Shown here in pieces: positions 8,706 to 64,000 of a stretch of DNA of 64,000 nt (positions are counted from its first letter, which is position 1; each line of letters begins with the position of its first letter). Made by a program: the position numbers and the translations under genes. Below the pieces are notes generated by a model that was given only the letters and a program-made list of their open reading frames with translations, searched no databases and was not told where the DNA came from. This DNA is from Gammaproteobacteria bacterium (GTDB lineage Bacteria > Pseudomonadota > Gammaproteobacteria > SZUA-152), in contig JAKISS010000003.1 in NCBI GenBank assembly GCA_021648485.1, forward strand, positions 3,988 through 67,987. Reading direction: 5' to 3'.

Positions 8706-9389
8706 ATGATGAAATTAATGCTTGGGTTTTTAGTGCTTTTGTTGACCGTGGCGTGTTCAACGAAACCGTACGTAGTGAAATTTGTTGAAAATACATTGTC
8801 AGAAAAAACCAATAAAATTTATGTAATAAGTCATGATTGGCATACAGGATTTATAATACCTAAAAATAAAATTCAACATCTTATTCCTGTATTAACAAAA
8901 CGATTTGATAATGCTGATCTTCTTGAATTCGGCTGGGGTGACAAAGGGTTTTATCAATCCAGGAAAATGACAGCCGGTTTGGTTTTTAGCGCTATGTTCT
9001 GGCCAACAGAATCTGTTGTTCATGTCGTTGCCGTTTCGGGAAACTCACACGGGTTTTTTGCCAACAGTGAAATTGAACCTGTTTACCTTAGTGATGAAGG
9101 ATATGACTCGCTGTTAAAATATATTTCGGACAGTTTTCGTAGGAACGAAAAAAAAGAAATAATTGAACTTGAAAAAGGGTTGTATGGCGACAGTCAGTTT
9201 TATGCTGGAGAAGGTGATTATTTTTTAATGAACACCTGTAATAAATGGACGGCAAAGGGTTTAAAAAGTGGGGGAATGGACATTGAAACAACTTTTACAT
9301 TAACGGCCAGTGGGGTAATAGGCTACTTGCAATCACAAAATAAAGCTCGAATCTCAAACGCTACAGGTATATATGCGGCTGATGATTAG
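8706..9389 (+). CDS. Hypothetical lipoprotein (AT-rich gene)
   Basis: MMKLMLGFLVLLLTVAC has a lipobox-like TVAC. The gene has low GC and no confident family. The ORF track begins 20 codons further upstream. Confidence 0.5.
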   Translation: MMKLMLGFLVLLLTVACSTKPYVVKFVENTLSEKTNKIYVISHDWHTGFIIPKNKIQHLIPVLTKRFDNADLLEFGWGDKGFYQSRKMTAGLVFSAMFWPTESVVHVVAVSGNSHGFFANSEIEPVYLSDEGYDSLLKYISDSFRRNEKKEIIELEKGLYGDSQFYAGEGDYFLMNTCNKWTAKGLKSGGMDIETTFTLTASGVIGYLQSQNKARISNATGIYAADD

Positions 9390-9404: not shown

Positions 9405-10385
9405 TTATCCGCCTGTTACCGACATAAAGCGTACTATTTGTGAAGGTTTTTCATTAAATTCATGGCGCTCAGGTTTGAGTGTGATGGCATGTTGGATCGC
9501 TTCCTGTAAGTCTTTATCGGAAATGCCGTTGCGCAACAATGGACGTAATTCAAATTTGTTGTCCTGCCCCAGGCACAGGTAGAGTGTGCCATCTACCGAC
9601 AAGCGCACCCGGTTGCAGGTTTCACAAAAGTGTTGTGAGATAGGCGTAATAAAACCGATGCGCAGGTCTGTGCCCGCTACTTGCAGATAACGTGCGGGTC
9701 CGCCACCCGGCATGACTCCGGGAACCAGATCAAAACGCTGTTCCAGTTTGGTGCGCACGGTTTGCAAATTTACGTAGTGATCCACCGCATCACATCCTGT
9801 GGTTCCCATGGGCATGGTTTCGATGAAACGCAGGGTGAAGTCATGTTCAATGCAAAAATCCACCATGGCTTCAACGTCATCTTCATTAACGCCTTTCATT
9901 ACCACCATGTTGATTTTGATGGGCGCGAAGCCAGCGGTTTTGGCGGCCATTAATCCATTGATGACTTTTTCCAGTTTGCCACCGGTGATTTCCTGAAAGC
10001 GTTTTGCATCCAGACTGTCCAGGCTGATGTTGAGTCGGCGTATTCCACCTGAGTACAGGTTTTTTGCGTGGCGAGCCAGTTGTACCGCATTGGTGCTTAG
10101 CGAAAGGTCTTCGATGCCCGGCAGGTTTTGCAGGCGGGCTGCCAGTGCGGGCAGGTTTTTGCGTACCAGTGGTTCACCACCGGTGATGCGCACTCGGCGG
10201 GTACCCAATGCACCAAACGCGCGGATGACCCGTTCGATTTCAGCAAAATTTAACCAGTGCTCGGGTTCTTCAAAGTCTTTGAAACCTTTGGGCAAGCAGT
10301 AAAAACAGCGCAGATCGCAACGGTCTGTGACTGACAGACGGATGTAGTCGATGGAGCGGCCATAAGGGTCGATGAGTTGAGACAT
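9405..10385 (-). CDS. moaA: GTP 3',8-cyclase MoaA (molybdenum cofactor biosynthesis, radical SAM)
   Basis: MSQLIDPYGRSIDYIRLSVTDRCDLRCFYCLP carries the CxxxCxxC radical-SAM motif. The C-terminal second Fe-S cysteine cluster is typical of MoaA. 326 aa. Confidence 0.9.
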   Translation of the reverse strand: MSQLIDPYGRSIDYIRLSVTDRCDLRCFYCLPKGFKDFEEPEHWLNFAEIERVIRAFGALGTRRVRITGGEPLVRKNLPALAARLQNLPGIEDLSLSTNAVQLARHAKNLYSGGIRRLNISLDSLDAKRFQEITGGKLEKVINGLMAAKTAGFAPIKINMVVMKGVNEDDVEAMVDFCIEHDFTLRFIETMPMGTTGCDAVDHYVNLQTVRTKLEQRFDLVPGVMPGGGPARYLQVAGTDLRIGFITPISQHFCETCNRVRLSVDGTLYLCLGQDNKFELRPLLRNGISDKDLQEAIQHAITLKPERHEFNEKPSQIVRFMSVTGG

Positions 10386-22991: not shown

Positions 22992-23066
22992 GGGTCAGTT
23001 CTCGTATTGTAGTCTCTTCTCAAATGGTCTAGACATCAACTTATGGCAAGACCCCTACGTATTGAA
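22992..23066 (+). repeat. Left-end-like 75 bp sequence, copy 1; includes the start and first 8 codons of the Y1 transposase gene
   Basis: GGGTCAGTTCTCGTATTGTAGTCTCTTCTCAAATGGTCTAGACATCAACTTATGGCAAGACCCCTACGTATTGAA, about 90% identical to 25703..25776. Confidence 0.7.
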
Positions 23067-23879
23067 TTTTCCGGTGCCCTTTATCATGTGACCTCACGCG
23101 GTGACCGGCGAGAGGCCATCTTCGAAGATGATGAAGATCGTCAGATATTTCTGTACACCCTGGCGGAGGTTGTTGAACGATTCAATTGGCTTTGTCATGC
23201 TTACTGCCTGATGACAAATCACTACCATCTGCTTGTGGAAACGCCGGATGGAAATCTGTCCAAAGGCATGCGACATCTCAATGGCGTCTACACCCAGGCA
23301 ACAAACCGGCGTCACTCACGAAGCGGTCACCTGTTTCAGGGGCGCTTCAAAGGGATTATTGTCGATAAGGACAGTTATTTGCTGGAGCTGACGCGCTATG
23401 TCGTGCTGAATCCAGTTCGCGCTGGCATAGTACGGCAGCCAGGGAAATGGCCATGGAGCAGCTATTGCGCCATGACAGGTAAAACGCCGACACCGAGCTG
23501 GCTAGCCACAGATGGAATTCTGGCGCAATTTGCCAAACGCCGTACTACCGCCCAAAAGCGGTACAGCGAATTTGTGGCAGAGGGAATCAAGAAAGAATCC
23601 ATCTGGAGTGAATTACAGCAGCAGATTTATCTCGGTGATGAGAAATTTATTAAACGAGTGCAACGGAAAGCGAATGTACAAGGCGATGAGTCAAGTGTGC
23701 CGCGAGCACAGCGCAGAGCGCCTGCTCCTACGCTTGAGAAGATTGCCGCCAAACACCGTGACCGGAATAAAGCTATTTCTGTTGCGTATGCCACCGGGGC
23801 GTACAGCTACCGCGAGATTGCAGAATATTATGGTTTGCATCTTGCCACTGTGGGCAGGATTGTACGAGAAAAAATGTAA
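23043..23879 (+). CDS. Long-form IS200/IS605-like Y1 (HuH) transposase / RAYT-related protein with C-terminal extension
   Basis: The HuH motif (NHYHLLV), the catalytic Tyr region, and the pattern YHVTSRG.....IF.DD.DR..FL of the Y1_Tnp (PF01797) family. The ~120 aa C-terminal extension has a helix-turn-helix-like tail. Confidence 0.75.
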   Translation: MARPLRIEFSGALYHVTSRGDRREAIFEDDEDRQIFLYTLAEVVERFNWLCHAYCLMTNHYHLLVETPDGNLSKGMRHLNGVYTQATNRRHSRSGHLFQGRFKGIIVDKDSYLLELTRYVVLNPVRAGIVRQPGKWPWSSYCAMTGKTPTPSWLATDGILAQFAKRRTTAQKRYSEFVAEGIKKESIWSELQQQIYLGDEKFIKRVQRKANVQGDESSVPRAQRRAPAPTLEKIAAKHRDRNKAISVAYATGAYSYREIAEYYGLHLATVGRIVREKM

Positions 23880-23931
23880 CAATGCGAGAGCTGACCCTTT
23901 GGTGCTTTGGTTTTCGCTTTGGCTCTGTTGA

Positions 23932-24420
23932 TCAGACAGGTTTAGCCGTGGTGAGATCATAGCCCTGCCGCACTGGAGAACCAGCAGTATTAGTTTTATC
24001 GAATTGGGTATAGCTTATATTTAATTTAGAGTATGCCAAAGTGACTTCTTCTCTTGGTGGACCGCCATCACCCCCATCGGCAAATATTTTAAAACCGCTA
24101 ATCAAGCAGTCAAAAAGCTCGTATGTCATAAATTCCTGTAACGTATTACTATGAGTACGTACAAAATGTAGTATGACTTTTTTCCCTTCTGATGTTGAAA
24201 CAGAATCTTTAAAAAAGCCAAGTGTTGCAACATCAAACCCTTTCGTTAACACAATTTTCTCGAATTCCGGATGTGCCGATTCACGGTTTGCCATATGGCC
24301 CGGTATCATGCTTATTTTACGTTTAACATTAAAATTAAGCGATGATATATCAATTTGATTTTCATATCCCGCTGCAGTTACATTCCCGGGTATACCTTCA
24401 AATTCACAATATATGGACAT
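23932..24420 (-). CDS. hcp: Type VI secretion system tube protein Hcp (TssD), orphan copy
   Basis: About 160 aa. It aligns block-wise with the Hcp1 family: IDISSLNFNVKR~IDVLAWSWGMSQ, FEKIVLTKGFDVATLGFFKDSVSTSEGKKVIL~FTKYIDKSTPNLMMACSSGKHYPQAKLTI, QEFMTYELFDCLISGF~VEYLIITLKEVLVSSV, EEVTLAYSKLNISY~ENVTLNFAQVQVDY. No other T6SS genes are present in the window. Confidence 0.75.
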   Translation of the reverse strand: MSIYCEFEGIPGNVTAAGYENQIDISSLNFNVKRKISMIPGHMANRESAHPEFEKIVLTKGFDVATLGFFKDSVSTSEGKKVILHFVRTHSNTLQEFMTYELFDCLISGFKIFADGGDGGPPREEVTLAYSKLNISYTQFDKTNTAGSPVRQGYDLTTAKPV

Positions 24421-24581
24421 TTTTTTCACTCGTGAGAATTAGATTAAATTTGTCTTTTCCAATATTGCATTTTACTATAATTCCAACTTGCATTACTATC
24501 TCGTATGAAGATTAAGTAATATATGATCATTGTCGAATTTACCCGATTACAACCATTGTTCTAGCAGATTGTTAAGGTGTT

Positions 24582-29643: not shown

Positions 29644-29860
29644 GATGCGTTCCTGTTGGCTGTGTGTGAATTAAGCGTTAAAAACACGCTACTTTTAAAA
29701 ATCACCGGGTATTTAACGCAGGGGACATAGAGCGTTTAGTGTTTTTTGTTTTTCTCTGCGTCCTTTGCGCCTCTGCGACCTCTGCGTTTATAACACGCCA
29801 CTTGTCAGCGCCACGACAACATAATCTCCCATTGTACTGGAGCGCTTATTCGGGGATTAA

Positions 29861-41936: not shown

Positions 41937-42060
41937 TACATTCAAGCCAGACTTTGGGAAACAGGAGATAACGTTATGTCGTCAGCCGTACAAGATGTGA
42001 AAGATCTGATCGATCATTTGCCCGATGATACCAGCATTGAGGATATTCAATATCACCTTT

Positions 42061-42528
42061 ATGTGCTGGAAAAGATTCGTCGCGGGCAGAACCTGTTTTT
42101 TCACCGTAAACTTGGCAGAACGGAAACGCATATTATTGATCGATCAGGTAGACGTATTACGTAAGGCGATTAATAAGGTCAAACAAAAATATCCATTTGT
42201 CATTGATGCCGTGGTTGTGCTTTCTGATCATTTACATATGTTGTGGACTTTGCCGCAGGGGGATCATGATTACCCGACACGCTTAATGTTGATTAAGGCA
42301 GACTTTTCTCGATTGATTGAAAAGGGCGAGTATCGTAATGCCAGTCGGCAAGCAAAAGGCGAGCGAGAAATTTGGCAGCGACGATATTGGGAGCACTTGA
42401 TTCGAGATGAACGGAATTACGCCAATCATGTGGATTACATTCATCATAACCCGGTGAAACACGGACATGTGGAGCAGGCGTTAACCTGGCAGTATTCGAG
42501 TGTTCATCGTTACATCCGGGCCGGGTAA
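42061..42528 (+). CDS. REP-associated tyrosine transposase (RAYT, Y1/HuH family)
   Basis: MCWKRFVAGRTCFFTVNL…VVLSDHLHMLWTLPQGD…REIWQRRYWEHLIRDERNYANHVDYIHHNPVKHGHV…WQYSSVHRYIRAG is collinear with E. coli TnpA_REP (YafM), including the HuH motif and the catalytic Tyr. Confidence 0.8.
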   Translation: MCWKRFVAGRTCFFTVNLAERKRILLIDQVDVLRKAINKVKQKYPFVIDAVVVLSDHLHMLWTLPQGDHDYPTRLMLIKADFSRLIEKGEYRNASRQAKGEREIWQRRYWEHLIRDERNYANHVDYIHHNPVKHGHVEQALTWQYSSVHRYIRAG

Positions 42529-42745: not shown

Positions 42746-45034
42746 ATGACAGAAACAACCGAACTAAACTACGAAGGCGTAGAACAACAACCCCTCAGCA
42801 CCTTTACTGAGAACGCCTACCTCAATTACTCCATGTACGTGATCATGGATCGTGCCTTGCCACATATCGGCGATGGTCTGAAGCCCGTGCAGCGACGCAT
42901 CGTCTACGCCATGTCCGAGCTGGGCCTCAAAGCGGGTGCCAAGTACAAAAAATCCGCACGTACTGTGGGTGATGTCTTAGGTAAATTCCATCCTCATGGT
43001 GATTCGGCCTGTTACGAAGCAATGGTCTTGATGGCGCAGCCGTTTTCCTACCGTTATCCACTGGTAGACGGGCAGGGTAACTGGGGTGCGCCGGATGATC
43101 CCAAGTCTTTTGCGGCAATGCGTTATACCGAGTCACGGCTGGCAAAATATTCAGAATTGCTGCTCAGTGAAATTGGCTTGGGTACGGTGGACTGGACACC
43201 GAATTTTGATGCGACACTGGATGAACCTTCAGTGTTGCCGGCGCGGGTACCGAATTTGTTGTTGAACGGTACCACTGGCATTGCCGTGGGTATGGCCACG
43301 GATATCCCGCCACACAATCTACGTGAGGTAGTGAACGCCTGTGTGCATTTGCTGGATACACCGAAGGCAACACTGGCAGATATTTGCGAGTATGTGCAGG
43401 GGCCGGATTACCCCACCGATGCGGAGATCATTACACCACGTAATGAGTTGGTCGCTATGTATGAGAAGGGCGGCGGCTCGGTGCGTATGCGTGCGGTATG
43501 GGAAAAGGAAGACAATGCAGTGGTGGTGACAGCACTGCCGCATCAGGTGTCCGGTAATAAAGTGCTGGAGCAAATTGCTGCGCAAATGAATGCGAAGAAG
43601 TTACCCATGGTGGAAGATTTACGTGATGAATCCGATCATGAAAACCCCACTCGTCTGGTGATTGTGCCGCGCTCCAATCGCATCGATTTGAATGAGTTGA
43701 TGGCGCATCTTTTTGCAACGACAGATCTCGAAAGAACCTATCGTGTAAATATGAACATCATTGGCCTTGATGGCAGGCCGCAGGTGAAAGATCTGCGCAC
43801 TTTGCTCAAGGAATGGCTGATGTTCCGTACCGACACGGTGCGCCGACGGTTGGAATATCGTCTGGAAAAAGTGAAGCGCCGGTTGCATTTACTGGATGGG
43901 TTGCTGATTGCGTTTCTCAATCTTGATGAAGTGATTCACATTGTTCGCACCGAGGATGAACCCAAATCGGTATTGATGAAACGCTTCAAGCTCACTGACG
44001 AGCAGGCGGATTATATTCTTGACACCAAGCTGCGTCAGTTGGCACGTCTGGAAGAAATGAAAATCCGTGCCGAGCAGGAAGAGCTGGCAGCAGAGCGTGA
44101 CAAACTGGAAAAAACGCTGGGTTCAAAAGCGCGCTTGAAAACGCTGATACGTAAGGAGTTGATTGCTGATGCGGAAGAATATGGTGACGAGCGACGCTCT
44201 CCCATTGTCGAGCGTGGTGCAGCTCAAGCGCTGGATGAAACTGCATTGATCAGTGCTGAGCCGGTCACGGTTGTATTGTCGGAGAAGGGCTGGATTAGAG
44301 CAGCCAAAGGCCATGATGTAGATGCTGCGGGCCTTAATTACAAAGCCAGTGATGATTTTAAAGCGGCGGCTTGTGGCCGCAGTAATCAGCAAGTGGTGTT
44401 TTTGGATGCCAGTGGGCGTTCGTATTCCATTGCTGCACATACGTTGCCATCAGCGCGTGGGCAGGGTGAACCGCTCACGGGGCGTGTGACTCCGCCCGAT
44501 GCCGCCAGTTTTGTTGATGTACTTGCGGGTAAAGGCAGTGATTTGTATTTGCTGGCCAGTGATGCGGGGTATGGTTTTGTGACCCGGCTGGAAAATATGT
44601 ATGCCAAAAATAAATCAGGCAAGGCTTTGCTGAAATTGCCCAAGGGTGCGCGAGTGCTGCGGGCCTGTGCTGTCAGTGATGTTGTCAGTGACCGCATTGT
44701 AGCGGTAACCACTGAGGGACGCATGCTGGTTATTTCATTGCAAGAGTTACCGGAAATGGCCAGAGGTAAAGGCAATAAGATTATCGGCATTCCCCCTGCG
44801 CGAGTGGCGAATCGCGAAGAGTATGTGGTTGGCGTTGCCGTTGTTTCTGTGGGTGACAGCTTGACAATTTATTCGGGAAAACGTCATTTGACCCTTAAAC
44901 CCAGGGATATAGAGCACTATGAGGGTGAGCGTGGCCGCCGTGGCTCCAAGCTGCCGCGTGGTTTTCAGCGAGTGGACAATATTTCTGCCAGTGGTTCAGT
45001 AAATGCCGCAACCGGGGTGGTTGAAAAAGAGTAA
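42746..45034 (+). CDS. parC: DNA topoisomerase IV subunit A
   Basis: [25 protein letters not shown]…, the active-site Tyr region (AAMRYTE), and 762 aa. Confidence 0.95.
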
Positions 45035-46887
45035 TGCCGATTGATTTGCTGCAATGGTGGGATCGCTTGCCTTATGTGGGCACAAAGAGCGAAGTGATTG
45101 CGCCGCGTGTTATTCCACTAAAGCTGGATGTGCCGATATTGCGTGTGCGTAACCGGCGCAAGCAGGAAAAATTGCAGCCCCCTCCCGATAGCTGGAAAGA
45201 CCTGAACAAGTATCCAACGGAATTGCTGCGCAAAATCGATGGTTATTTACAGCGTGTTAATACAGAGAAAATGCGTAATAGCAAACGTATGGCCTGGGTT
45301 GAGCATGCCTTGCAGTATGCCTGCCCGGCCATACGAAAAATTTATTCTGAGTACTACAAATCCGAAGCATTGCCGGAATCGCATGACAGACGTGAAGGAT
45401 TGATGGCAGCAATTAATGTGTGCAGCCAATTGGCGGTGGGTTATAAACGTCAACTGAATGAAGATTTTGCCTTGCCCGATGCCCGCTATGCCCGAGTGCG
45501 TCCCCGGGTGCGCCATCATGCTGTGCGTATTTTGGAATTACTGCGCATGGAGCAACGTTTACGTGCCATGCGTTATCAAAAATTATCAGAAAAGAGCTGG
45601 CAGGATTGTCACCAGATATTTTTTGCCCTTTCCCAGTGCGAAGACATTGATGAAAAACGGTTGTCGTTAAATTGCTTGCAGGTGTTGCTGGACAGTTCAG
45701 CCAATGAAAGTACACGCCGGATGCCGATAATGACATCATTAAACCTGGTTTATCTTTCTATCCAGTTTAATGGTTTGTTTAACATTAGCGCCTTGTTATG
45801 CCAAAAACTACATGTGGTGGATGCACAAATTGCCAATGTTATCGGCTCGATTACCATTATTCCCGATCATGGTAAAAAGCTGGGGCGCGGTAAGTTGTTG
45901 ATTTACCATGGGCAGGATTGTCCGCCGTATTTTAAACGTCAGGATGAAATACAGCGGAAAAAACAGCTTGCATGGTTGAAAGCCCGTGGTGAATTTTGCA
46001 CGGGTGAGGCACTTTCATCGGAATATAAACTGAGGGCTGTTATCGTTGATGTCTCGCCGCTGGATGCAATGTTGATGAAAGAACATCAGCGATTGCTGGC
46101 GCGATTTGAGTCACAGGATTTCATTGAGGGCGTGAAAGAAAAAGGGGCAAAAAATAAATATAATAGCGTTGTTGATCAGGATGACCTGGCCAATTTGTTG
46201 ACCATAGATGCCATGTGTGATGGTTTGCAATTGAAACAGCGTAAGGAGGAAAGAGAATATATTCTTGGCCGGAAAATATTGTATGTGTACAACGGGTTTA
46301 TGTCAGTTTACAAATTGCTGGTGGATATGGCGACAGAAAAAAACAACGAAAACTCCAGCCTGGCAAGTGATAATGATTTACGTGATGCATTGGCAGGTCG
46401 TTCGGCATTGATTGCTGCGGATTTGCAGGATAATGAGTTTGGTCAGTGGTTTGTGGTCGATAAAAGTGAGGGCGGGGTTCACATTAAAACACGAGACAGT
46501 GAATTTACTACCGCCTTGTTTATTGGCCAGGTTGTGGCATTTGCTTATTCACGTGAAGCACTTGCCAGACCGGCGCTGGGTTATGTGGTGCGCCTGCGTC
46601 GTAATATCAGTAAAGAAATCGAAGTGACTATTCGTATTTTATCAAAAACCGTTGTTGCTACCACTGTGCAAAATGATTTTTTAACTCAAAATGATATGGC
46701 TTTGCCTGCTATCGTGCTTGAGCGTGATGACATGACCAGGAGACGTTTAATGTTACACCATAGCCATCGATTGTCATCGGGTACCCTGGTAAAGATTGAA
46801 CTGGATCAGCAACAAACGGAAATTATTTCCGAGATGCTGAAAATTCAGCGGGAGTTTGTGGTTTATTCGCTGCTGGAAAAATCGTAA
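45034..46887 (+). CDS. Large conserved hypothetical protein (paralog P1 of 49030..50889)
   Basis: 617 aa. The start ATG overlaps the parC stop (TAATG), implying translational coupling. It shares blocks with the 619 aa protein (…A[VI]GYK…; …HRA[IV]R[IY]L…L…Y…H…W…H…). It may belong to the DUF1631-type family that neighbours fimX in Pseudomonas; that attribution is from recollection and is unverified. Confidence 0.6.
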   Translation: MPIDLLQWWDRLPYVGTKSEVIAPRVIPLKLDVPILRVRNRRKQEKLQPPPDSWKDLNKYPTELLRKIDGYLQRVNTEKMRNSKRMAWVEHALQYACPAIRKIYSEYYKSEALPESHDRREGLMAAINVCSQLAVGYKRQLNEDFALPDARYARVRPRVRHHAVRILELLRMEQRLRAMRYQKLSEKSWQDCHQIFFALSQCEDIDEKRLSLNCLQVLLDSSANESTRRMPIMTSLNLVYLSIQFNGLFNISALLCQKLHVVDAQIANVIGSITIIPDHGKKLGRGKLLIYHGQDCPPYFKRQDEIQRKKQLAWLKARGEFCTGEALSSEYKLRAVIVDVSPLDAMLMKEHQRLLARFESQDFIEGVKEKGAKNKYNSVVDQDDLANLLTIDAMCDGLQLKQRKEEREYILGRKILYVYNGFMSVYKLLVDMATEKNNENSSLASDNDLRDALAGRSALIAADLQDNEFGQWFVVDKSEGGVHIKTRDSEFTTALFIGQVVAFAYSREALARPALGYVVRLRRNISKEIEVTIRILSKTVVATTVQNDFLTQNDMALPAIVLERDDMTRRRLMLHHSHRLSSGTLVKIELDQQQTEIISEMLKIQREFVVYSLLEKS

Positions 46888-49029: not shown

Positions 49030-50889
49030 TTAAATCAGTGTCCATACGGCATCGAATTCGTCATCTGTCTCAGCATCGGCCGATGGTTTTGTTTTTTTCT
49101 GCACATTTTCAAGTACGGTAAATTCAAACTGAGAGAATACACCAGTGGATTCCAGTTGTTTAGTGAGTTTGATGCGTGTGCGACGTCCGTGGACGTTGGC
49201 AATCAGTTGGTCATCGGTTTGGTGCCAAGCATGTGTGATCAGTGTGGCAGGTTGGTCAATGCTGGACAATCGGGGTAATACCAAACTGCGCTGATATTTT
49301 TCCGCAGTGTCATCTTTGGTAATGGCAGAAAGCGCAATAGCATCAGCGCAGGGTGCCAGTTTCTGGATGCCAAGCTCAAGCCCGTTTTTCCAGTTTTTTA
49401 TGCGGCGGATAATGCCAATGCTGAGTTGTGTGCCGCTTGCGGCAATATTATCGCGGATACCCACCAGTTCGCCGACCTGGACTTTTTGTGAATCTTTTCC
49501 ATAAACCAGATAACCTAGCAGGCAGTAACCACCGGCACTTTCGTTGACGCCTTTGCAGGGCAACGGAGTGTGTGCGTATAAAGCGCTTTTGTCCTGAGTT
49601 TCGTCACCACGGGTTTCTGAAGTATGCTCGGGGTTGTTCGCCCGGTAGGTGAAATCCGGATCCCAGATATCCGGTGTATGGTCATCCAGATTGCTGATAC
49701 CAAACACGGGGCTGCTGGTGTAGTGGGCAGGTTCATCCAGCACAAAGTCCTCATCATCGTCCGTTGTTGAAACAAGGTTGCCCGTCTGTAGGGCATCTGT
49801 CGCTGTGGGGCAACTTGCTGTTGGGTCTTTCAACAGAGGGCGAATGACTTCATCGATGTAATGATGGGTTGCGCTCAGACCGAGAGTGATGGCAATTTCG
49901 TTGCTTTTTGAGGTGCGGGGGAAAGTACGGTGCGATTTTCCGCTCCAGGTGACGATCAGGCGTTTTTGTACATCGGGTGGAATTTTTGGGGCAGCATCAC
50001 CACCGGAGAGCATGGAGTTACTCATGGCCTGCACCAGTTCGCTGGTATCCACGGTACGACAGAATGCGGGGTTGACGGTGCCATCGTCACGGAAATAACC
50101 GGGAGCGGCATCGCTGTTCATATTGATGTTAAAGGCGTAGCTGTCATCCAGGATTTCGCCGTAAGGGTGGATGTGGGCATTGGCTCCCCAGGTTTCCAGT
50201 GTCCGATACACAGCCTCAGTGACATGTTGGCGCAAGCGGTAGGGGCCGACCAGGGCCAGCAGGAGGATTTGTTTGTAAATGTCAGCGATATTACTGTCCA
50301 ACACGGTCTCGGGGGCAACATGATCCTTGATCAACGTGACGTGCAACTGGCGGTTCTCTGCATACAAATAAAGACGATGCACTTGCAGCCAGACATTTTC
50401 CGGGTGCTGGATATAAATCTGATACGAGCACAGCAGCACATTACTGAGATAACGAATGGCACGATGCAGGCAAATGCCCAGGGTTTTGTTGTTCAGGCGT
50501 GAAAAAGTCTTGCTAAGTTTGCTTTGAATAATGGCCTTATAGCCAATGGCCATTTCCGAGTTCAGTTGAATAGCCAGCTCGGCAATTTTTTGATTTTTGG
50601 GAGAAAGAGGCAGATTTTGATTAATGTAGTGTGTTTTTAACACCTCTGTAATCTGGTAAACCGGTTCGCGCAGAAGCTCCATGGATTTATAACGGTCATG
50701 TGCAGACATGCTCAGGCGATTCATCTCACACAGTGTTGTATAAATAAGGCGTGCGCTTTCGCCGATGTTGGCCATCGGTAGCGAAGTGACCCAGGCCTCA
50801 ACCTGTTTTGGACGAGGGTCGAACGAACCCGAAGTGGGTTTGTTTTGTTCCGGGATGTTCAGTAATCCTTCAGACATGCTGTTCGCCAC
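49030..50889 (-). CDS. Large conserved hypothetical protein (paralog P2 of 45034..46887)
   Basis: 619 aa, co-oriented directly upstream of the fimX-like gene. The sequence blocks shared with P1 are listed under that feature. Confidence 0.6.
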   Translation of the reverse strand: MANSMSEGLLNIPEQNKPTSGSFDPRPKQVEAWVTSLPMANIGESARLIYTTLCEMNRLSMSAHDRYKSMELLREPVYQITEVLKTHYINQNLPLSPKNQKIAELAIQLNSEMAIGYKAIIQSKLSKTFSRLNNKTLGICLHRAIRYLSNVLLCSYQIYIQHPENVWLQVHRLYLYAENRQLHVTLIKDHVAPETVLDSNIADIYKQILLLALVGPYRLRQHVTEAVYRTLETWGANAHIHPYGEILDDSYAFNINMNSDAAPGYFRDDGTVNPAFCRTVDTSELVQAMSNSMLSGGDAAPKIPPDVQKRLIVTWSGKSHRTFPRTSKSNEIAITLGLSATHHYIDEVIRPLLKDPTASCPTATDALQTGNLVSTTDDDEDFVLDEPAHYTSSPVFGISNLDDHTPDIWDPDFTYRANNPEHTSETRGDETQDKSALYAHTPLPCKGVNESAGGYCLLGYLVYGKDSQKVQVGELVGIRDNIAASGTQLSIGIIRRIKNWKNGLELGIQKLAPCADAIALSAITKDDTAEKYQRSLVLPRLSSIDQPATLITHAWHQTDDQLIANVHGRRTRIKLTKQLESTGVFSQFEFTVLENVQKKTKPSADAETDDEFDAVWTLI

Positions 50890-55864: not shown

Positions 55865-56356
55865 TTAATGTTGATGTGAATGTGAGTCGTGTTGCCCGTT
55901 GTGCAGGGTATTGGCTGTTGCTTTTTTAACGGGCAGGGAAATTTCCAGTGAACTGTTTGTTGAATGTTCATCGGTGAAAAACAGAGTGAGGGTTATGTTG
56001 TCGCCAGCCTTAAGACGTTTTTTGGGGTTTATCAGCATCAGGTGCATGCCACCTGGCCGAAAGACGATATGTCCTTTACTGTTTAATATGACCTGCGGAA
56101 CAGGCAGCATTTTGCTCATACCGTCATGTTGTTCTGTGCGATGCATTTCAATTCGTTTGAAATCAGGAGAAGAGAGGCCCGTCAGAGTATACATGCTAGG
56201 CGAAGGGTTTTGTAACGTTAAGTAGGCGGCTATTACACTTGTTTTTGGCGGGGCTTCCCGTGCCCAGGCATCATGTACATGAAGTTTGTCAGCCGCGTTG
56301 ATGGTGGTCATCATCAATAATAAAACCAACGGGAATATTTTTGTCAGTGCCATCAT
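55865..56356 (-). CDS. Periplasmic copper chaperone PCu(A)C (DUF461)
   Basis: A signal peptide, then HVHDAWAREAPP…AAYLTLQN and an H(M)x10Mx21HxM-like Met/His pattern. A His-rich tail follows (HDSHSHQH). Confidence 0.7.
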   Translation of the reverse strand: MMALTKIFPLVLLLMMTTINAADKLHVHDAWAREAPPKTSVIAAYLTLQNPSPSMYTLTGLSSPDFKRIEMHRTEQHDGMSKMLPVPQVILNSKGHIVFRPGGMHLMLINPKKRLKAGDNITLTLFFTDEHSTNSSLEISLPVKKATANTLHNGQHDSHSHQH

Positions 56357-56375
56357 ACGTTGTTTCAAGGGGCCA

Positions 56376-57002
56376 TTACGGCGTGTTGAGTGAATAGTTG
56401 TTACGTAACGCCAGGTATTGTGCAAGAACTTCTTCAGCATAGTGTGGCGCTTTGAAGCGTGCATAGTAGCGGGCTTGTGGATCGATCAGCAACATGGCGC
56501 TGGAATGATTAACGATGGCTCCACCCGCAGGGTCGGTTTCCAGGCTGAATTTGGAATCCAGCTGACGGGCAAACGTGGTTAGCGCATCGACGCTGCCGGT
56601 GGCACCGAGAAAAGACTCGTTGAAATAACCGACATATTCAGCCAGTGATTCGGGGCTGTCCCTCTGCGGGTCTACTGAAACAAGCACAAACTGTGTATCG
56701 TCCTGCACTTCTGATGGCAGCTGTTGGGCCATTTGTGCCAGCTCGGTGAGTGTCATGGGGCAAATGTCAGGGCAGTGAGTGTAACCGAAAAAGAGTAATG
56801 TCCATTTGCCTTTCAGGCGCTCAATATCCAGTGGTTTCAGGTCATGGGCGGTGAGCTGAAAGGTGGTTAATGGTTTTGGCTCCATCAGGCGTGCCTCGGT
56901 GCCTGGCGCGGCGTTATCGTTTTGTTGCACCAGGCTGGCAGCGGCACCGATCAGCAAAATAGTGATGATCAGGCTCAGTGTTATTTTTACGGATTGAGAC
57001 AT
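56376..57002 (-). CDS. SCO1/SenC-family thioredoxin-like copper chaperone
   Basis: A signal anchor, the CPDICP (CxxxC) copper site, and the downstream conserved His. It lies upstream of PCu(A)C in the same orientation. Confidence 0.8.
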   Translation of the reverse strand: MSQSVKITLSLIITILLIGAAASLVQQNDNAAPGTEARLMEPKPLTTFQLTAHDLKPLDIERLKGKWTLLFFGYTHCPDICPMTLTELAQMAQQLPSEVQDDTQFVLVSVDPQRDSPESLAEYVGYFNESFLGATGSVDALTTFARQLDSKFSLETDPAGGAIVNHSSAMLLIDPQARYYARFKAPHYAEEVLAQYLALRNNYSLNTP

Positions 57003-57148
57003 GAGGTGAATTATCGCACGATAATTCACCTCAGGCGGTTTATACTGTGCGTCTTTTTTTAGGCGACAGTATGTTGGTCGCAGCAACCAATACATGAGTG
57101 AATAGAGCAACTATGTCTGCAAGTACACAATTTCGCCACGATCAACCT

Positions 57149-58239: not shown

Positions 58240-58980
58240 GCCATAAGCCACACCCAGCCGACAGATCAGTTTGGCCATGTAGCGCCGGGCTTAGTCTTCC
58301 AGTATTTCATTGGCACTCACTGGTTGTATTCACGCTGAATTCGCAGTGAGTCTTTGTTAATATCCATCGGGGTTTCTGTTTATCCCCCTGTGTCAGGATA
58401 GTTGTCAGAAGCCTTGATAATGTATTAGTGTATCGCTATGTTATGATTGCCTGGGTAAGCTGGCACTAATTTAGTGCGCACGCCATCGGTAGTGAAAGCG
58501 TCTTCCACAGGTTGAGGTCAGAGGTTATATGGTTCAACCCAGGCCGCAACTTCACTTTTAAGCATTTCCTGATCCGCAATGTGCCTACCCAGACATTGCT
58601 CTACGTCCAGTTTCCATTCAGTATTTTTTAGTCCGCCAGGTTTCTTTCTAGAACTGGGTTCAATCCTTGTGTTACAGCCCGTTTACGTATGCGTTCAACG
58701 GTTCAGATCCTAATGCCAAACACTTCACCGGTCTGTTCATCTTTCCAATTTTCACCTTCATATTTATCCGCTTTGAGCAAAATTTGGGTATACAATCGTT
58801 TATGAGATGCTACTTTTCGCTTTTTTACAATGTCGTGCAGTTTTGTTCGTTTGGTTTCAGTCAGCTTTATTTTGTATTTTTTGGCCGTGGTGTCATTCTG
58901 TTTCCTGTGAATAGGGGAAAGGTGTATTCTACCCAGAAATTATGGCATGGCAATGTGCGAGTGGCCCGAGCACTTTGATA
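58240..58980 (-). pseudogene. Decayed IS630/Tc1-like transposase remnant (frameshifted N-terminal HTH fragment plus disconnected C-terminal fragments)
   Basis: On the minus strand AGGAAACAGAATG opens a short frame (MTPRPKNTK*). A +1 frame continues with KYKIKLTETKRTKLHDIVKKRKVASHKRLYTQILLKADKYEGENWKDEQTGEVFGI. The RL.T.ILL.A(D/E) pattern followed by (D/E)EQ.. matches the paired-type HTH of IS630 transposases. Further short fragments lie downstream (…RHIADQEMLKSEVAAWVEPYNL*). No intact ORF is present. Confidence 0.45.
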
Positions 58981-59048
58981 ATTATTTTATGCTCATGAAC
59001 TTTTGCTTGAACAGCATTGCTCTTTTTTTAATAAAATATTGGAGTTAA

Positions 59049-59753
59049 ATCATTATCAACATTTCCATAATAATTCCCATTTATAATGAATTTGACACGA
59101 TTCTTGTCCTTTTAAATAAAATACTATCATTGCCGTTTAAAAAAGAAATTATTCTTGTTGATGATGGTTCTACTGATTCTTATAGAAGAATGGTTAATTC
59201 TCTGAGTTTTCATCCCAATATCCTCTTCCTTCATCACGTTCAGCGCATGGGAAAAGGTGCAGCAGTACAGACCGGGCTACAAGCAGCTACAGGTGATATT
59301 GTAGTAATTCAGGATGCTGACCTTGAGTATGATCCATCTGACATTATTCCATTAATCAAACTTATTGAATTGGAGAAAGCAGACGTAGCTTATGGTGTGC
59401 GTGACCTTTCCAGTCAAAGAACAATTATAAAATTTGGAAACCGGTTTCTTACGTGGATGATAAATAAACTTTATGGTCAATCTATCCTTGATATGACAAC
59501 TTGTTATAAGGTTATGCGGATTGATGTAATGAATAGTTTGGAACTGAAGTCCAGAAAATTTTCAATTGATGCAGAAATTACTACCAAGTTATTCAGGGTA
59601 GGGTATACCATTGCAGAAACTCCCATTAGTTATGAGCCGAGATATGTTAATAAAAAATTGAAAATTTGGGATGGGGTTCCAATGCTATGGACGATGCTTA
59701 AATATCGGTTTTGGAAGCCTACAGTGGATAAGTCATTTATTCGTGTGGACTAA
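59049..59753 (+). CDS. Family 2 glycosyltransferase (polyprenyl-phosphate sugar synthase, ArnC/DPM1-like)
   Basis: In frame from 59049 the protein reads IINISIIIPIYNEFDTILVLLNKILSLPFKKEIILVDDGSTD…VIQDADLEYDP, i.e. canonical GT2 N-terminal and DxD motifs. There is no ATG, GTG or TTG between the in-frame stop at 59046–59048 and the TTG at 59130 used by the ORF track. It is either a non-canonical start (ATT at 59052, 7 nt after GGAG) or a degraded 5' end. Confidence 0.6.
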   Translation: MIINISIIIPIYNEFDTILVLLNKILSLPFKKEIILVDDGSTDSYRRMVNSLSFHPNILFLHHVQRMGKGAAVQTGLQAATGDIVVIQDADLEYDPSDIIPLIKLIELEKADVAYGVRDLSSQRTIIKFGNRFLTWMINKLYGQSILDMTTCYKVMRIDVMNSLELKSRKFSIDAEITTKLFRVGYTIAETPISYEPRYVNKKLKIWDGVPMLWTMLKYRFWKPTVDKSFIRVD

Positions 59754-59936
59754 TATGGGGCGACAATTGTTCCTTAAAAACTTTTGATTGGTGTATATTT
59801 GGAATAGTTTCGACAATTTATACAGCTAATAGTGTTGTTTGTCTGTTTTAAAAACAGACAAACGGGTTAAAGTATAACCTTATGGGAAGCTTATCAATTG
59901 AATTTTTATTTGGTAATAATCGCGCATAGATAAGCA

Positions 59937-61712
59937 GTGATATTGAATAACCTAGTTTATAAACTCCAACAATATTCAGCTAGTTATAGTTGGAAATTGT
60001 CTCGCATGCCAGTTTGTATATTTTTGTTGGCATTTTCTATAAATTTATTGCATGTCGGTATGGCAGAGTGGGGGGGAGGATTGCTCTCTGCCTACCCGCG
60101 TTCTGATGCCTATATTTATATTTACCAAGCTTGGTACACAGCATTTATAGATAGTAATGGTGGTTTTTCAAGTGTATTTATGTCCCCTTCTTTGTACGTA
60201 TGGTTGCAAACCATAGCTTACAAGTTGTTTGGTCCACATTATTCTGTCCCGTTATTAGTGAATGCTATGCTAGTGAGTTTTTCAGCAGTTTTTTGTTCTC
60301 TAACCACAAGACGTTTATTTATCGAACAAGTTGGATGGATTGCCGGTGTAATATTCACGCTCTGCGGCCCCATTGTTTTTTTTTCTGGTATAACGGTTAA
60401 AACAAATCTGGTATTATTTTTATTGGCATTGGCTTGTTATTTCGCCATTCGTTTTTTTCAGGATGTGAGATATTGGTGGGCTTTCACTGCCACATTAACT
60501 TTAGGTTTAGCCGCTATGGAGCGGCAAAATCTTTTGTTGTTGATCATATTTTTAATTTCGTTCATTGTGCTTCACGGGTGGCGGACAGCATCAAAAAAGG
60601 AATTAATTAAGATTTATGCTGCTTGCGTTTCAGCTGTTGCTCTTTTGTTTGTTATTTCTGCCTGGAATCCTAATGAGATAGAACCAAAAATATTTTCTCC
60701 AGTAGGCCTTAATTTCTATGTTGGAACTGCGCCAAAATCTTGGGGGGGGTACACCTTTGTTGAAGGTATTCGAAATGACATTATAGGCCACCGCACTCAA
60801 CCACAAAGATTGTTGGAAAATGAGTCAGGGCGTCCCGTGAGTCGCTGGGAAGTAAGTCAATTCTGGTTTAAAAAATCCCTTGATTATTATGCCAAGCACC
60901 CATTGGACTATTTGGTGTTACAACTTCGGAAGGCGGGACTGTTAGTAGCACAATATTCCCAAGGGTTACCAGAGCAGTATCATGTATGGAGATGGAAGCG
61001 GCCCGCATTAATGCTTGCGTTCATCGATACAGGTTTAATGCTGATATTTTTCGGGTTTGGGTTGTTTTATTTGCGCTCTAGGGTGGGTGATCCTGGGCTG
61101 AAATTTTTAATCATTGGGTCAATACTTTATTCATTATCGGTATGGATATTCTTTATTGGTGAGCGGTATCGTTTGACTTTAATTGTTCTCTTGGTTCCAA
61201 TTGCTGCATATGGTATATGGAGCATCCTACAGAATAGGTCAATTAAGAAAATAGCTCTGAGTATTGGTATTATCTTGCTTTTCTATGGAGGATCATGGGG
61301 ATTAAATAATCTTATTCCTTACGGGCCTGGGTGGGCTGAAGATCATGATCGATTTCTAGCGCGAGAACAAAAGAAACAACATAAAGAAAGGCGGGTTAAT
61401 CAGCTCATGACACAAGTTGTGTATAAACCAAATATAGAGGCGTGGCTAGAACTATCTAAAATATTCGAACGCAGAGGCTTGTTGCCAGACGCTAAAACAT
61501 TTGCCGAAAGAGCTATAGCTAGTGCGCCAAGCAAGAGTGAAGGTTATGAACGTATGCTTGATTTGTTAAATCGAAACAGTGCAGAATCTGAAAGAGAAAT
61601 ATTTTCTTTATTACTCGAAAAAGCATCAAGCGAAGAGGTCGGGGACCAAAGAGCTCTCAACGCACTAAAACAACAATTATCTCGGCTGAAAGATAAACGT
61701 CCTATTCATTAG
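59937..61712 (+). CDS. GT-C fold glycosyltransferase (PMT_2/ArnT-like, polyprenyl-phosphate-sugar dependent) with C-terminal TPR-like helical domain
   Basis: 591 aa. About 11–12 TM helices are present. An N-terminal periplasmic loop carries acidic and aromatic residues (YPRSDAYIYIYQAWY). The C-terminal ~150 aa is soluble and helical, ending in TPR-like repeats. It sits directly downstream of the GT2 gene. Confidence 0.7.
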   Translation: MILNNLVYKLQQYSASYSWKLSRMPVCIFLLAFSINLLHVGMAEWGGGLLSAYPRSDAYIYIYQAWYTAFIDSNGGFSSVFMSPSLYVWLQTIAYKLFGPHYSVPLLVNAMLVSFSAVFCSLTTRRLFIEQVGWIAGVIFTLCGPIVFFSGITVKTNLVLFLLALACYFAIRFFQDVRYWWAFTATLTLGLAAMERQNLLLLIIFLISFIVLHGWRTASKKELIKIYAACVSAVALLFVISAWNPNEIEPKIFSPVGLNFYVGTAPKSWGGYTFVEGIRNDIIGHRTQPQRLLENESGRPVSRWEVSQFWFKKSLDYYAKHPLDYLVLQLRKAGLLVAQYSQGLPEQYHVWRWKRPALMLAFIDTGLMLIFFGFGLFYLRSRVGDPGLKFLIIGSILYSLSVWIFFIGERYRLTLIVLLVPIAAYGIWSILQNRSIKKIALSIGIILLFYGGSWGLNNLIPYGPGWAEDHDRFLAREQKKQHKERRVNQLMTQVVYKPNIEAWLELSKIFERRGLLPDAKTFAERAIASAPSKSEGYERMLDLLNRNSAESEREIFSLLLEKASSEEVGDQRALNALKQQLSRLKDKRPIH

Positions 61713-62147
61713 TATGGTTTAGTGTTTGTACAAATATCGGCATCCGGTTGAAAATATCTTTGCGCGCCTTAAGTGTTTCCGGTCAATTGCGATGAGATAT
61801 GACAAATTAAAACGAAATGATCAGCGCATGTCGGCACTCGCTTACAACTTTTTTTGGTTACCAATGTGAAGCGTCAACTGACTGACCCTTAGTAATTTTC
61901 CACTCTCACCTAAATTCACAAACTATGTCGAAATTTTATACAATTTTCTGCCAATTATATATTAGGAAAACTATATAATTTATGCATTTCAATGACATAT
62001 ATTTACTGGCATGAAAAGTGCGTATTGTTGTCTTGCAGACAGATTTCACCATTATGTGTAAAAGAATTCGACATTACCTGCCTGCAATTAAAGTTTTTAA
62101 TTACTAAAGTTAGCGATAATAATTTCAGGAAATATATAGCAACAAGT

Positions 62148-62885
62148 ATGAGTATCTTACGTAATTTATCAGTCGCATTAACCTTGATGCTATCAAGCTT
62201 TTCAACCCAAGCAACGGTCATTGATCTCTATCAGTGGGTTTTTAATATTAATGGAACAATCTATGAGTCTGGATTTTATCCTGTAGGCTCGGAATCTCTA
62301 CCAGAGCCTTTCAGTGGTACCTTAGATACAAGTGGTCTAGGGTTTTTAAGCACTGAAATTACGGAGGCTGGGGACTATAGTTTTGTTGCGATGCTAGATT
62401 ACGAAATTGATGAAGTTGATAATACTTTTTTCAATGAATATGGTAGCACTGGTGGTACATTAGCAGCAGGCCAGACTTGGGAGATTGACGAACCGGGTTG
62501 GACCTCTGGTGATCTGTATTGGAATGTTCTGGATGCAATATTGGATAACTCAAATAATGTGCCCGATGGTCTTAATGACGACGTTTCCTTCGCGCTTGGC
62601 TGGGATTTCACTTTAGCTGAAGGACAGACAGCAATCATTGATATATTCATGAGTGAAATGTTGGGTACAACTGGGTTTTATTTAGCTCAAAGCGATGCTG
62701 AAACTGGTGCAGGCTATGATGAGTTAACGAATATTTTTTTCTGGAGTGATATATCGATAACCGGTTCACCATCAAGTACCAATAATACTACAAGTAATAC
62801 TAGTGTGCCTGAGCCCTCGGTTATTGTGTTGATAGGTATCGGTTTGTTAGGGTTGGTTGTTACACGGCGTCGTCACACCGTATAG
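62148..62885 (+). CDS. PEP-CTERM sorting-signal protein (putative exosortase substrate) with Ser/Thr-rich linker
   Basis: A signal peptide (MSILRNLSVALTLMLSSFSTQA). The C-terminus is …GSPSSTNNTTSNTSVPEPSVIVLIGIGLLGLVVTRRRHTV, i.e. VPEP motif, TM helix and Arg cluster: the PEP-CTERM signature. The start was chosen at the signal peptide; the ORF-track start is 52 codons upstream. Confidence 0.75.
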   Translation: MSILRNLSVALTLMLSSFSTQATVIDLYQWVFNINGTIYESGFYPVGSESLPEPFSGTLDTSGLGFLSTEITEAGDYSFVAMLDYEIDEVDNTFFNEYGSTGGTLAAGQTWEIDEPGWTSGDLYWNVLDAILDNSNNVPDGLNDDVSFALGWDFTLAEGQTAIIDIFMSEMLGTTGFYLAQSDAETGAGYDELTNIFFWSDISITGSPSSTNNTTSNTSVPEPSVIVLIGIGLLGLVVTRRRHTV

Positions 62886-63251: not shown

Positions 63252-64000
63252 AATGTGGGGAAAGCACCTTAAACGGATAAGAGTTGGATTTTACTGTCTG
63301 CTTTCATTTGTCAGTTTCACGCCGCTCGCTACTCATGCGGACATTTCTCAGGCTGTTGATTATTTGATTACACAACAGGCCGTTGATGGCATTTTTTACA
63401 ACCCGGATACGAACTCAACTTCGTTTCAGTCTACAGCTGAGGCCGTGCGTGGTTTGGTCTTTGTCGGTGAGGCTAGTCAGGCAGATATAGTTGCGGCGCG
63501 CAGTATCTTAAACGGAATTGAGGTTCGCAATACGGAATACCTGTCACGGTTACTAGTGACAACAGTCCAGTCCGGAAATTATCCACAAGCCATAATAGAG
63601 GAACTGCTACTACATCAAAATGTTGATGGAGGTTTTGGTGATTTTTCGGGTTATGATAGTACGATATTGGATACCGCTTTTGCTCTTGAAGCATTGGCAG
63701 AATCCGGTCAGCAACAGAGTGCTATTGCCCCAGCCGCTTGGTTTTTGTTGAATGCCCAATCGGCGGAAGGAGGGTGGTTGGACGGTTCGGATGAAGCCAG
63801 TGTTTATCTCACGGCGCTTTCCATGCGTGCTCTGTGGCACTATCGAAGTGTGTTTTTGGATGTACCTGTTGCATTGGCGAATGCACAAGATTTTTTGCTG
63901 GCGCAACGAGACAATACTACGGGCTTATGGTCTGAAACGTTTAAGTCGGCATTGGCACTGATCGCCCTGATACCTAATGCCAGTGAGTTTTCACAGCTTG
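63252..64000 (+). CDS. Secreted prenyltransferase/terpenoid-cyclase-repeat (alpha-alpha toroid) protein, 5' partial (runs off the window)
   Basis: A signal peptide (…TPLATHA) is followed by repeated Q/W…DGG(F/W) units (QQAVDGIF, HQNVDGGFGDF, NAQSAEGGWLDG, AQRDNTTGLWSE), typical of the prenyltransferase/squalene-oxidase repeat. It is an open frame with no stop inside the window. Confidence 0.5.

Follow-up and report, generated by a model that had tools for sequence, protein, structure and literature searches.

The window analysed here, a stretch of 64,000 nucleotides from a gammaproteobacterium of the SZUA-152 lineage (contig JAKISS010000003.1 of assembly GCA_021648485.1, positions 3,988 to 67,987), carries on its plus strand three successive genes for a GT2 glycosyltransferase (59049/59052-59753), a membrane glycosyltransferase of the GT-C type (59937-61712) and a secreted PEP-CTERM protein (62148-62885). 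An earlier note, made from the sequence alone, had taken these genes for a candidate dedicated system in which the first protein makes a lipid-linked sugar and the second transfers it to the third. All three genes are indeed found, once their limits are corrected to those just given, and they stand in that order within a block that is AT-rich and foreign in composition, as the note had said (GC content 0.35-0.41 against 0.49; gene by gene 0.352, 0.395 and 0.411 against 0.492 for the first 58 kb of the window). They are less tightly joined than had been supposed: the spacers measure 183 nt between the GT2 and GT-C genes and 435 nt between the GT-C and PEP-CTERM genes, and the third gene has a conserved sigma-54-like element of its own. 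Exact look-ups of the window's own proteins (in both start choices, and as the NCBI protein P0001) returned no match, and so genomic contexts were taken from relatives, whose loci, bearing either the GT-C or the PEP-CTERM gene, are numbered L001 to L025.

The GT2 gene encodes a short protein of the polyprenyl-phosphate type, 234 residues long and with no transmembrane (TM) helix, as judged from Pfam, NCBIfam and Protein Data Bank matches. Its frame is open for 234 codons from a TAA at 59046-59048 to the stop at 59753, and the first ATG, GTG or TTG within it is a TTG at 59130. Initiation at this TTG would cut off the nucleotide-binding N-terminus (IIIPIYNE; IIINISIIIPIYNEFDT...), which is encoded by the 27 preceding codons. 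An ATT at 59052 sits 7 nt past a GGAG at 59041-59044 and is conserved across seven related loci; the codon at 59049 is ATC in the window and GTC in L001, and relatives about 90% identical keep the GGAG and have the same 234-codon frame open. On the simplest reading of these sequences, ATT 59052 is probably a rare start codon. A 5'-truncated pseudogene is a less probable reading, since in all seven related loci the 27 codons before the TTG remain open and specify the catalytic N-terminus. Gene callers have shortened the product to 207 residues.

The protein matches Glycos_transf_2 (E=3.3e-24), and both the DXD-type motif DADLEYDP and the N-terminal nucleotide-binding strand can be read directly in its sequence, as befits a GT-A enzyme. 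Its best NCBIfam matches are AglJ, ArnC, Dol-P-hexose transferase, PgfS and PpgS, all far under their equivalog cut-offs (65 bits against 529 for ArnC; a weak E=4e-14 for PgfS), and the polymer synthase PgaC/IcaA ranks third. The closest solved relatives are ArnC, the Dol-P-Man synthase (DPMS) of Pyrococcus and the GtrB of Synechocystis, with E values of about 1e-12 to 3e-11, so that, among characterised enzymes, its nearest relatives make lipid-phosphate sugars and not polymers or oligosaccharides. In being short and free of membrane helices it resembles the PpgS and Dol-P-hexose transferase models (profile lengths 226 and 213), and DPM1 is also short and without membrane helices. The NCBIfam and solved-structure matches support membership in the ArnC/DPM1/GtrB class of polyprenyl-phosphate glycosyltransferases, in agreement with the ArnC/DPM1 type proposed earlier.

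The GT-C gene begins at GTG 59937, with an alternative start at ATG 60006 (the one used in P0001), and was assigned from its PMT_2 match, a structure model and conservation. Its product has about 11 TM helices followed by a C-terminal TPR-like domain at residues ~470-586, which is short, with some 2-3 repeats. The only Pfam match is to PMT_2 (E=9e-9, residues 84-236), and the only NCBIfam matches at E<=0.1 are to the LA_3751/2 family and Agl23; the ArnT model is absent among them, and neither membership in the ArnT equivalog nor location in an arn operon was found. The features of PMT enzymes (GT39), namely the PF02366 domain, the luminal MIR domain and the loop-1 acidic motif, are also lacking, and there is no DUF1736/TMTC match in Pfam. 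When the membrane domain was compared by sequence with solved structures, alone or as a 13-sequence profile, there was no match at E<=10, so the profile comparison that had been suggested for this protein yields PMT_2 without separating ArnT from PMT. An AlphaFold model built on a 12-sequence alignment (pLDDT 76.9, pTM 0.81) has an ArnT-like GT-C fold. The model helices and the distribution of Lys and Arg residues point to an N-terminus inside the cell, 11 TM segments and a periplasmic TPR-like domain. The description of this protein as a PMT_2-type enzyme with a C-terminal TPR-like domain holds. Across the subfamily, at 30-92% identity, the invariant residues are S56-D57 (at the start of the first periplasmic-loop helix), K155, R196, D364 and R410, which are natural candidates for a catalytic base and for phosphate binding.

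Close relatives of this GT-C protein are rare. A word-indexed search returned 13 clusters, of which 11 lie at 36-100% identity, and the protein occurs in only four GTDB species, all of them uncultured marine or hydrothermal Gammaproteobacteria; a metagenome scan added eight contigs. An exhaustive profile search reached about 45 full-length representative clusters above 250 bits, behind which lies the very large PMT_2 superfamily (888 representatives at E<=1e-30). Where members come from named organisms (Halopseudomonas, Sedimenticola), the annotation is always "hypothetical" or "ArnT-like". A search of viral contigs turned up no relatives, which leaves a phage-borne, Gtr-like origin unsupported. 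In the short metagenome contig L018 (3-2401), two paralogues of the GT-C subfamily stand in tandem, 32% identical across their C-terminal part.

The spacer between the two glycosyltransferase genes contains a perfect 13-bp palindrome (GTTTGTCTGTTTT/AAAACAGACAAAC, 59837-59863). This spacer is 94% conserved among four relatives, compared with about 90% for the block as a whole, and in L013 each arm of the palindrome carries one change with pairing preserved. No run of T residues follows, so the palindrome is not a canonical terminator.

The third gene lies in an open reading frame (ORF) that spans 61992-62885. Translation probably begins at ATG 62148, which coincides with the beginning of the signal peptide and with the start of homologues, giving a protein of 245 residues. 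The layout is that of an exosortase substrate: a signal peptide, a beta-sandwich (residues 25-205), a Ser/Thr/Asn-rich linker, a VPEP motif, a TM helix and an RRRH tail, with the VPEP, a 17-residue hydrophobic stretch and the RRRH all read directly in the sequence. Scores lie above the cut-offs for both PF07589 (27.9 bits; cut-off 20.7) and TIGR02595 (25.3 bits; cut-off 16), and the PEP-CTERM assignment, including the linker SPSSTNNTTSNTS (residues 207-219, nt 62766-62804), is borne out. The structure model (pLDDT 87.6) has helices at residues 2-16, the signal, and 225-244, at the C-terminus; the linker is of low confidence and disordered in it. Such Ser/Thr/Asn linkers are 9-14 residues long in the closest relatives only, and the linker is mostly a short Gly/Pro one in the rest of the family. 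The protein is a distant relative only of the PepA flocculation proteins (36.8 bits with the model NF033554, under the cut-off of 80), and 38 of the 46 family members match the same floc_PepA model weakly (best E=1.9e-13), again under the cut-off. It shares with the PepA-type proteins of Zoogloea and Aquincola a small secreted form, the PEP-CTERM anchor and a sigma-54-type promoter (PMC9850573), and differs from them in that its family adjoins giant secreted repeat proteins rather than exopolysaccharide (EPS) loci. There is no exosortase among the 40 other ORFs of the window, and no EPS genes occur in it.

About 125 nt upstream of the PEP-CTERM start lies a sigma-54-like -24/-12 element (TGGCATGAAAAGTGC, 62007-62021, plus strand). 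The loose sigma-54 pattern matches once in the window, with 0.73 matches expected, and the count is not significant. The element is given weight because it is conserved: its GG-N10-GC core is kept in L001, L009, L013, L014 and L015 and also in L021 (~9829-9845), which has no GT pair. PEP-CTERM genes of the pepA type are RpoN-dependent (PMC9850573). Scans for consensus sigma-70 promoters and for terminators gave results at chance level.

Genomic contexts were compared over flanks of at most 10 kb on each side of the GT pair; L003 and L010 end at or just after the GT-C gene, L014 begins at the GT-C gene, with its upstream genes outside the contig, and L020 is a short partial contig. The GT2 gene accompanies the GT-C gene in every locus with a GT-C identity of at least 63% that has sequence upstream (L001-L013, L015-L017 and L020). 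In the clade with GT-C identities of at least 87%, the order is that of the window, from the scar of an IS630-family insertion sequence (IS) through the GT2, GT-C and PEP-CTERM genes to genes for a 1110-residue CarboxypepD_reg protein and a 1750-residue IgGFc-binding/PKD protein, and this order is seen wherever the contig extends (L001, L002, L009, L013, L014 and L015; in L014 from GT-C onward). An integrase lies in the surroundings of L001. The clade at 63-67% GT-C identity has an adjacent GT2 gene directly upstream in four full and independent contexts, and the partial contig L020 carries the same pair. The neighbours in these contexts are queA and psiE (L004, L005 and L011); truB on one side and an SDR epimerase/dehydratase with an ORF of 14,482 residues on the other (L006, 7466-17415); RES-Xre and PIN-PhD toxin-antitoxin pairs, a GT4 gene and an LPG_synthase_TM protein (L007, L008 and L012); and transposases (L016 and L017). 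No PEP-CTERM ORF was found within the scanned flanks of the 63-67% loci, by a motif scan of all ORFs with which BLASTP with the window protein agrees, and the motif scan of all GT-C loci detected no PEP-CTERM tails outside the clade with at least 87% identity.

The partnership with a GT2 enzyme is constant, although the partner itself differs between the clades. The GT2 proteins of the two clades are only 36-37% identical (L004 9192-9929, L006 4860-5606 and L007 3409-4158 against window 59049-59753), while the GT-C proteins are 63-67% identical. From these identities, the GT2 partner has been exchanged, by a non-orthologous or highly divergent replacement of the putative donor-making enzyme. 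No flippase gene accompanies the GT pair in any locus: no ORF lies between or beside the pair in the window, and there is no third conserved gene in L001-L017.

The PEP-CTERM gene likewise occurs without the GT pair. Its family is broad, with 173 matches across Glaciecola, Desulfobacterota, Acidobacteria and Methylococcales. In L021 and L022, a relative 78% identical in protein sequence is followed by the same two giant genes as in the window clade, and upstream of it lie sdhCDA, gltX, glnS and a gene for a 137-residue protein, with no GT pair within 10 kb of the PEP-CTERM gene. These loci are 84% identical to L001 at the nucleotide level from the PEP-CTERM start through both giant genes. Upstream, homology between the window and L021 starts near 61926 and takes in a motif (TTTCAATG...TGGCAT.AAAAGTGC) together with the -24/-12 element. 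A relative at 64% identity is followed by a 3316-residue PKD/He_PIG/RHS protein, and one at 43%, from a Glaciecola isolate, is preceded by a 2984-residue He_PIG/RHS protein; neither has glycosyltransferase genes nearby. The gltX-glnS segment of L021 is about 79% identical to that of L007 and L012, which carry the GT pair some 5 kb upstream but no PEP-CTERM module, and related genomes thus have one unit or the other, but not both, near the same anchor genes. Co-occurrence across genomes, which had been set beforehand as the check on a dedicated system, is therefore confined to loci in which GT-C is at least 87% identical, and the proposed dedication to the PEP-CTERM neighbour is not supported by the comparison: as in the refuting case that the note had named, the pair stands in four full contexts without a PEP-CTERM gene, and the PEP-CTERM gene in three without the pair.

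The fourth gene of the region belongs with the PEP-CTERM gene and not with the GT pair. Its 5' part lies at 63253-64000 on the plus strand, where it runs off the window, and its orthologue in L001 (13244-16576) is the secreted protein of 1110 residues, in which many CarboxypepD_reg domains follow an N-terminal region similar to squalene-cyclase/prenyltransferase repeats. The orthologue also matches weakly the Kustd1514 family of anammox S-layer glycoproteins (NF052345, E=1e-38, 132 bits with a cut-off of 1400). In L001 the gene for the 1750-residue protein comes after it. Members of the PEP-CTERM family adjoin giant secreted proteins, either of the CarboxypepD_reg/PKD/IgGFc-binding kind or of the He_PIG/RHS/YD-shell kind, in all four of the context types seen (among them L021 10001-19682, L023 10001-20720 and L025 423-10708), which suggests a shared function.

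The composition and edges of the region point to separate histories. At the left edge of the foreign block lie degraded fragments of an IS630-family transposase (58387-59040, minus strand, GC 0.412), recognized by blastn collinearity and translation: a helix-turn-helix N-terminus (KKYKIKLTETKRTKL...) and a C-terminal piece, broken by several stops, with a remnant ORF of 61 residues kept at the same place in L001. Collinearity with L001, L002, L003 and L009 begins at 58387, and the sequence to its left differs, being hemH in the window and a giant FG-GAP gene in L001. GC content is 0.35-0.40 from here to about 61900, compared with 0.47-0.49 in the flanks and the giant genes. The IS630 scar, the drop in GC confined to the glycosyltransferase genes and a right limit at about 61900-61926 together argue that some 3.5 kb were inserted upstream of a pre-existing PEP-CTERM promoter; the block from 58387 to about 61900 looks like an insertion of foreign composition. 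There is no tRNA or Rfam match in the window, and a tRNA-linked island boundary was accordingly not found.

Based on these data, the region is best read as a mosaic of two independently inherited units. On this reading, whose probability is put at roughly 0.6, the GT pair forms an autonomous module, and the gene beside it does not define what the acceptor is. The first unit, from 58387 to about 61900, would be the foreign insertion with its IS630 scar and would encode a self-contained, two-gene module for envelope glycosylation. The second, from about 61926, would begin with the sigma-54-type promoter and the small PepA-like PEP-CTERM protein, which appears to head a conserved cluster with the two giant secreted repeat proteins. 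The two glycosyltransferase genes stay together in unrelated contexts, and so their neighbours do not tell what the acceptor is. The adjacency to the PEP-CTERM gene is lineage-specific and weak evidence for glycosylation of the neighbour, since a mobile two-gene unit has settled beside this gene in one lineage only.

The pairing of an ArnC/DPM1-type GT2 with a GT-C enzyme is an established signature of pathways that use lipid-linked monosaccharides, as in ArnC/ArnT, GtrB/GtrC, Ppm1/Pmt, PpgS/Rv3779 and CsbB/YfhO. Given this signature, the two-step chemistry of the GT2 and GT-C enzymes can be held with good confidence. The short GT2 would load undecaprenyl phosphate with one sugar taken from a nucleotide sugar, at the inner face of the membrane, as expected from its family; the lipid-linked sugar would then be flipped by a protein encoded elsewhere; and the GT-C protein would pass the sugar to an acceptor on the periplasmic face. 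From the fold and the conservation, Asp57 is likely catalytic, with K155, R196 and R410 likely binding phosphate, and the predicted periplasmic TPR-like domain would help to hold the acceptor or a partner. The GtrB/PgtC2 pairing is documented in streptococci (PMC12041528), and the concept of three-component systems has been set out elsewhere (PMC11127046). The acceptors could be proteins that are exposed to the periplasm and encoded elsewhere or broadly, as with TMTC or PgtC2, a suggestion that has somewhat less than an even chance of being right; a glycan or lipid of the envelope, as with Gtr or ArnT, is a serious if lesser possibility, and some other kind of acceptor is unlikely.

Several points weigh against the autonomous-module reading. 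The GT pair and the PEP-CTERM gene are adjacent in at least five distinct contigs of the window clade, and the longest Ser/Thr/Asn linkers of the PEP-CTERM family (12-14 residues) are confined to that same clade, which together leave room for a functional link. The divergence of the GT2 partner implies that the donor sugar may differ between clades, and the picture of one conserved module is to that extent oversimplified. With no flippase gene, the pathway is incomplete as encoded, and since the GT2 gene has no canonical start codon in the window clade, its level of expression is uncertain. The comparison itself has a defined reach: the flanks extend over 1-4 kb on one side in L006, L007, L012, L016 and L017, so that the absence of PEP-CTERM genes there covers less than 10 kb, and co-occurrence was scored within contig flanks rather than whole genomes.

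Three other explanations overlap with the autonomous-module reading and with one another, and their probabilities do not sum to one. The one with the most to recommend it, though still doubtful, is that the pair is a Gtr- or Arn-like module that adds a single sugar to an envelope glycan or lipid (O-antigen, core, lipid A or exopolysaccharide) and so alters the surface or the susceptibility to phages or antimicrobials. The mobile, AT-rich and variable surroundings, near IS elements, toxin-antitoxin pairs and an integrase, are typical of surface-glycan conversion cassettes; ArnC and GtrB are the nearest solved relatives of the GT2; and decoration systems that act after polymerisation with a GT-A enzyme, a flippase and a GT-C enzyme are widespread (PMC11127046). 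These three-component systems (GtrA/GtrB/GtrC, or a polyprenyl-phosphoribose synthase with a MATE flippase and GT136) share with the window pair a lipid-linked monosaccharide donor, a GT-C enzyme and an accessory, mobile character (PMC11127046). The window encodes only two components, however, and no GtrA-type flippase, arn, O-antigen or EPS gene is adjacent in any locus. The window family also conserves its GT-C and swaps its GT2, the opposite of the Gtr pattern as it is known. Lipid A modification, which the earlier note had offered as its alternative, fares poorly: arnA, arnB, arnD, arnE and arnF are absent from the window and no arn genes occur in the related loci, the GT2 scores far below the ArnC cut-off and lacks the C-terminal TM helices of ArnC, no ArnT model appears among the GT-C matches, and a sequence profile built on the TM domain recovers no solved GT-C structure. 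At its C-terminus the GT-C protein has a TPR-like domain, not an ArnT periplasmic domain or a carbohydrate-binding module, and the viral contigs hold no relatives. Even the structural likeness to ArnT is not diagnostic and says nothing about the acceptor, because TMTC proteins also resemble ArnT most (PMC7801869).

Those TMTC proteins provide the model for the next explanation, in which the GT-C would be a TMTC-like protein O-glycosyltransferase whose main substrates are the surrounding giant proteins with Ig-like repeats (the CarboxypepD_reg, PKD and FG-GAP/cadherin-like proteins and the 14,482-residue protein of L006), the PEP-CTERM linker being a side substrate at most. The likeness is one of architecture: TMTC1-4, which O-mannosylate cadherin domains, consist of a PMT_2-type GT-C region followed by extracytoplasmic TPR-type repeats, their nearest solved structure is ArnT, and uncharacterised full-length TMTC-like proteins exist in prokaryotes (PMC7801869). 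The window protein has far fewer repeats than the eight or more of the TMTCs and lacks the DUF1736 signature, and its donor would be an undecaprenyl-phosphate sugar from the adjacent GT2. Two of the five context types (the window clade and L006) have giant secreted repeat proteins beside the pair, the fourth-gene orthologue of L001 matches an S-layer glycoprotein family, if weakly, and the SDR epimerase/dehydratase after GT-C in L006 recalls the Pgf locus; but three of the five contexts have no giant protein beside the pair, L021 has the giant-protein module without it, and the genomes appear rich in giant genes, so that adjacency may be a matter of chance. This explanation is unlikely. A system dedicated to O-glycosylation of the Ser/Thr-rich pre-anchor linker of the adjacent PEP-CTERM protein, acting while that protein is anchored in the inner membrane and before exosortase cleavage, is more improbable still. 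It draws on the adjacency in every contig of the window clade that reaches far enough, on the length of the linkers there, and on a disordered, juxtamembrane position of the linker that coincides with the site of the GT-C active centre. To our knowledge, the GT-C enzymes of its closest precedents, the GtrB/PgtC2 and Pgf systems, carry no TPR repeats. In these proven streptococcal systems (PgfS/PgfM1 in the case of Pgf), a GT2 makes an undecaprenyl-phosphate sugar and a GT-C transfers it to disordered, Ser/Thr-rich juxtamembrane segments outside the cytoplasm (PMC12041528); they are Gram-positive, and their substrates are encoded elsewhere in the genome. For PEP-CTERM proteins, glycosylation has been hypothesised only (PMC12188702, PMC9850573). 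Four other full contexts have the pair and no PEP-CTERM ORF in the scanned flanks, PEP-CTERM modules at 78%, 64% and 43% protein identity lack the pair, and the relative at 78% retains a Ser/Thr-rich linker (APSSTSNIS) yet has no glycosyltransferase neighbour. The 435-nt spacer, the separate promoter that belongs to the PEP-CTERM module and the insertion signature of the GT block argue in the same direction.

The remainder of the window is largely housekeeping in nature (topA, parE/parC, the pho regulon, a DMSO-reductase-type operon and hemH) and holds no exosortase or polysaccharide genes. Two IS200-like (Y1) transposase genes lie at 23043-24429 and 42025-42528. An orphan Hcp gene of a type VI secretion system sits in another AT-rich patch (GC 0.36 at 24-25 kb), and a further AT-rich patch at 7531-9389 (GC 0.39-0.43) carries genes for an ATP-dependent DNA ligase and a DUF2459 protein. 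Two long ORFs of 617 and 619 residues (45034-46887 and 49030-50889) have no Pfam match at E<=1e-4. A small protein at 4491-5237 combines a CarboxypepD_reg domain with a MopE-type copper-binding motif, and the copper chaperones SCO1 and PCuAC are encoded at 55865-57110. Within 29750-29857 there is an intergenic segment of 70-88 nt that is 84-89% identical to segments near the integrase end in L001 (1601-1670) and L009 (1737-1823); it is not a tRNA, has no Rfam match and occurs once in the window.

The proposal that PEP-CTERM proteins are glycosylated is as old as the description of the system. In papers of 2023 and 2025 it still stood as a hypothesis (PMC9850573, PMC12188702), and in the literature searched its undemonstrated status is as the earlier note had it. 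A cassette that encoded such a modification would make the question directly testable, and the present locus offers only a weak lead. It is unlikely, but conceivable, that the GT2/GT-C pair is a Gram-negative counterpart of the TMTC/PgtC2-type protein O-glycosyltransferases, placing single sugars on periplasm-exposed, Ser/Thr-rich segments that include the linker of the PEP-CTERM protein and possibly the neighbouring giant Ig-like-repeat proteins; if that were true, exosortase substrates, long suspected of being glycosylated, would for the first time have an identified enzyme for this modification. Systems of this kind are already known, and the subfamily with its TPR-like domain and invariable GT2 partner is uncharacterised. 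What the locus brings to light is, on the one hand, a rare bacterial GT-C subfamily with a predicted periplasmic TPR-like domain, a constant short lipid-sugar synthase as its partner and mobile surroundings and, on the other, a broad family of PepA-like PEP-CTERM proteins that travels with giant secreted proteins.

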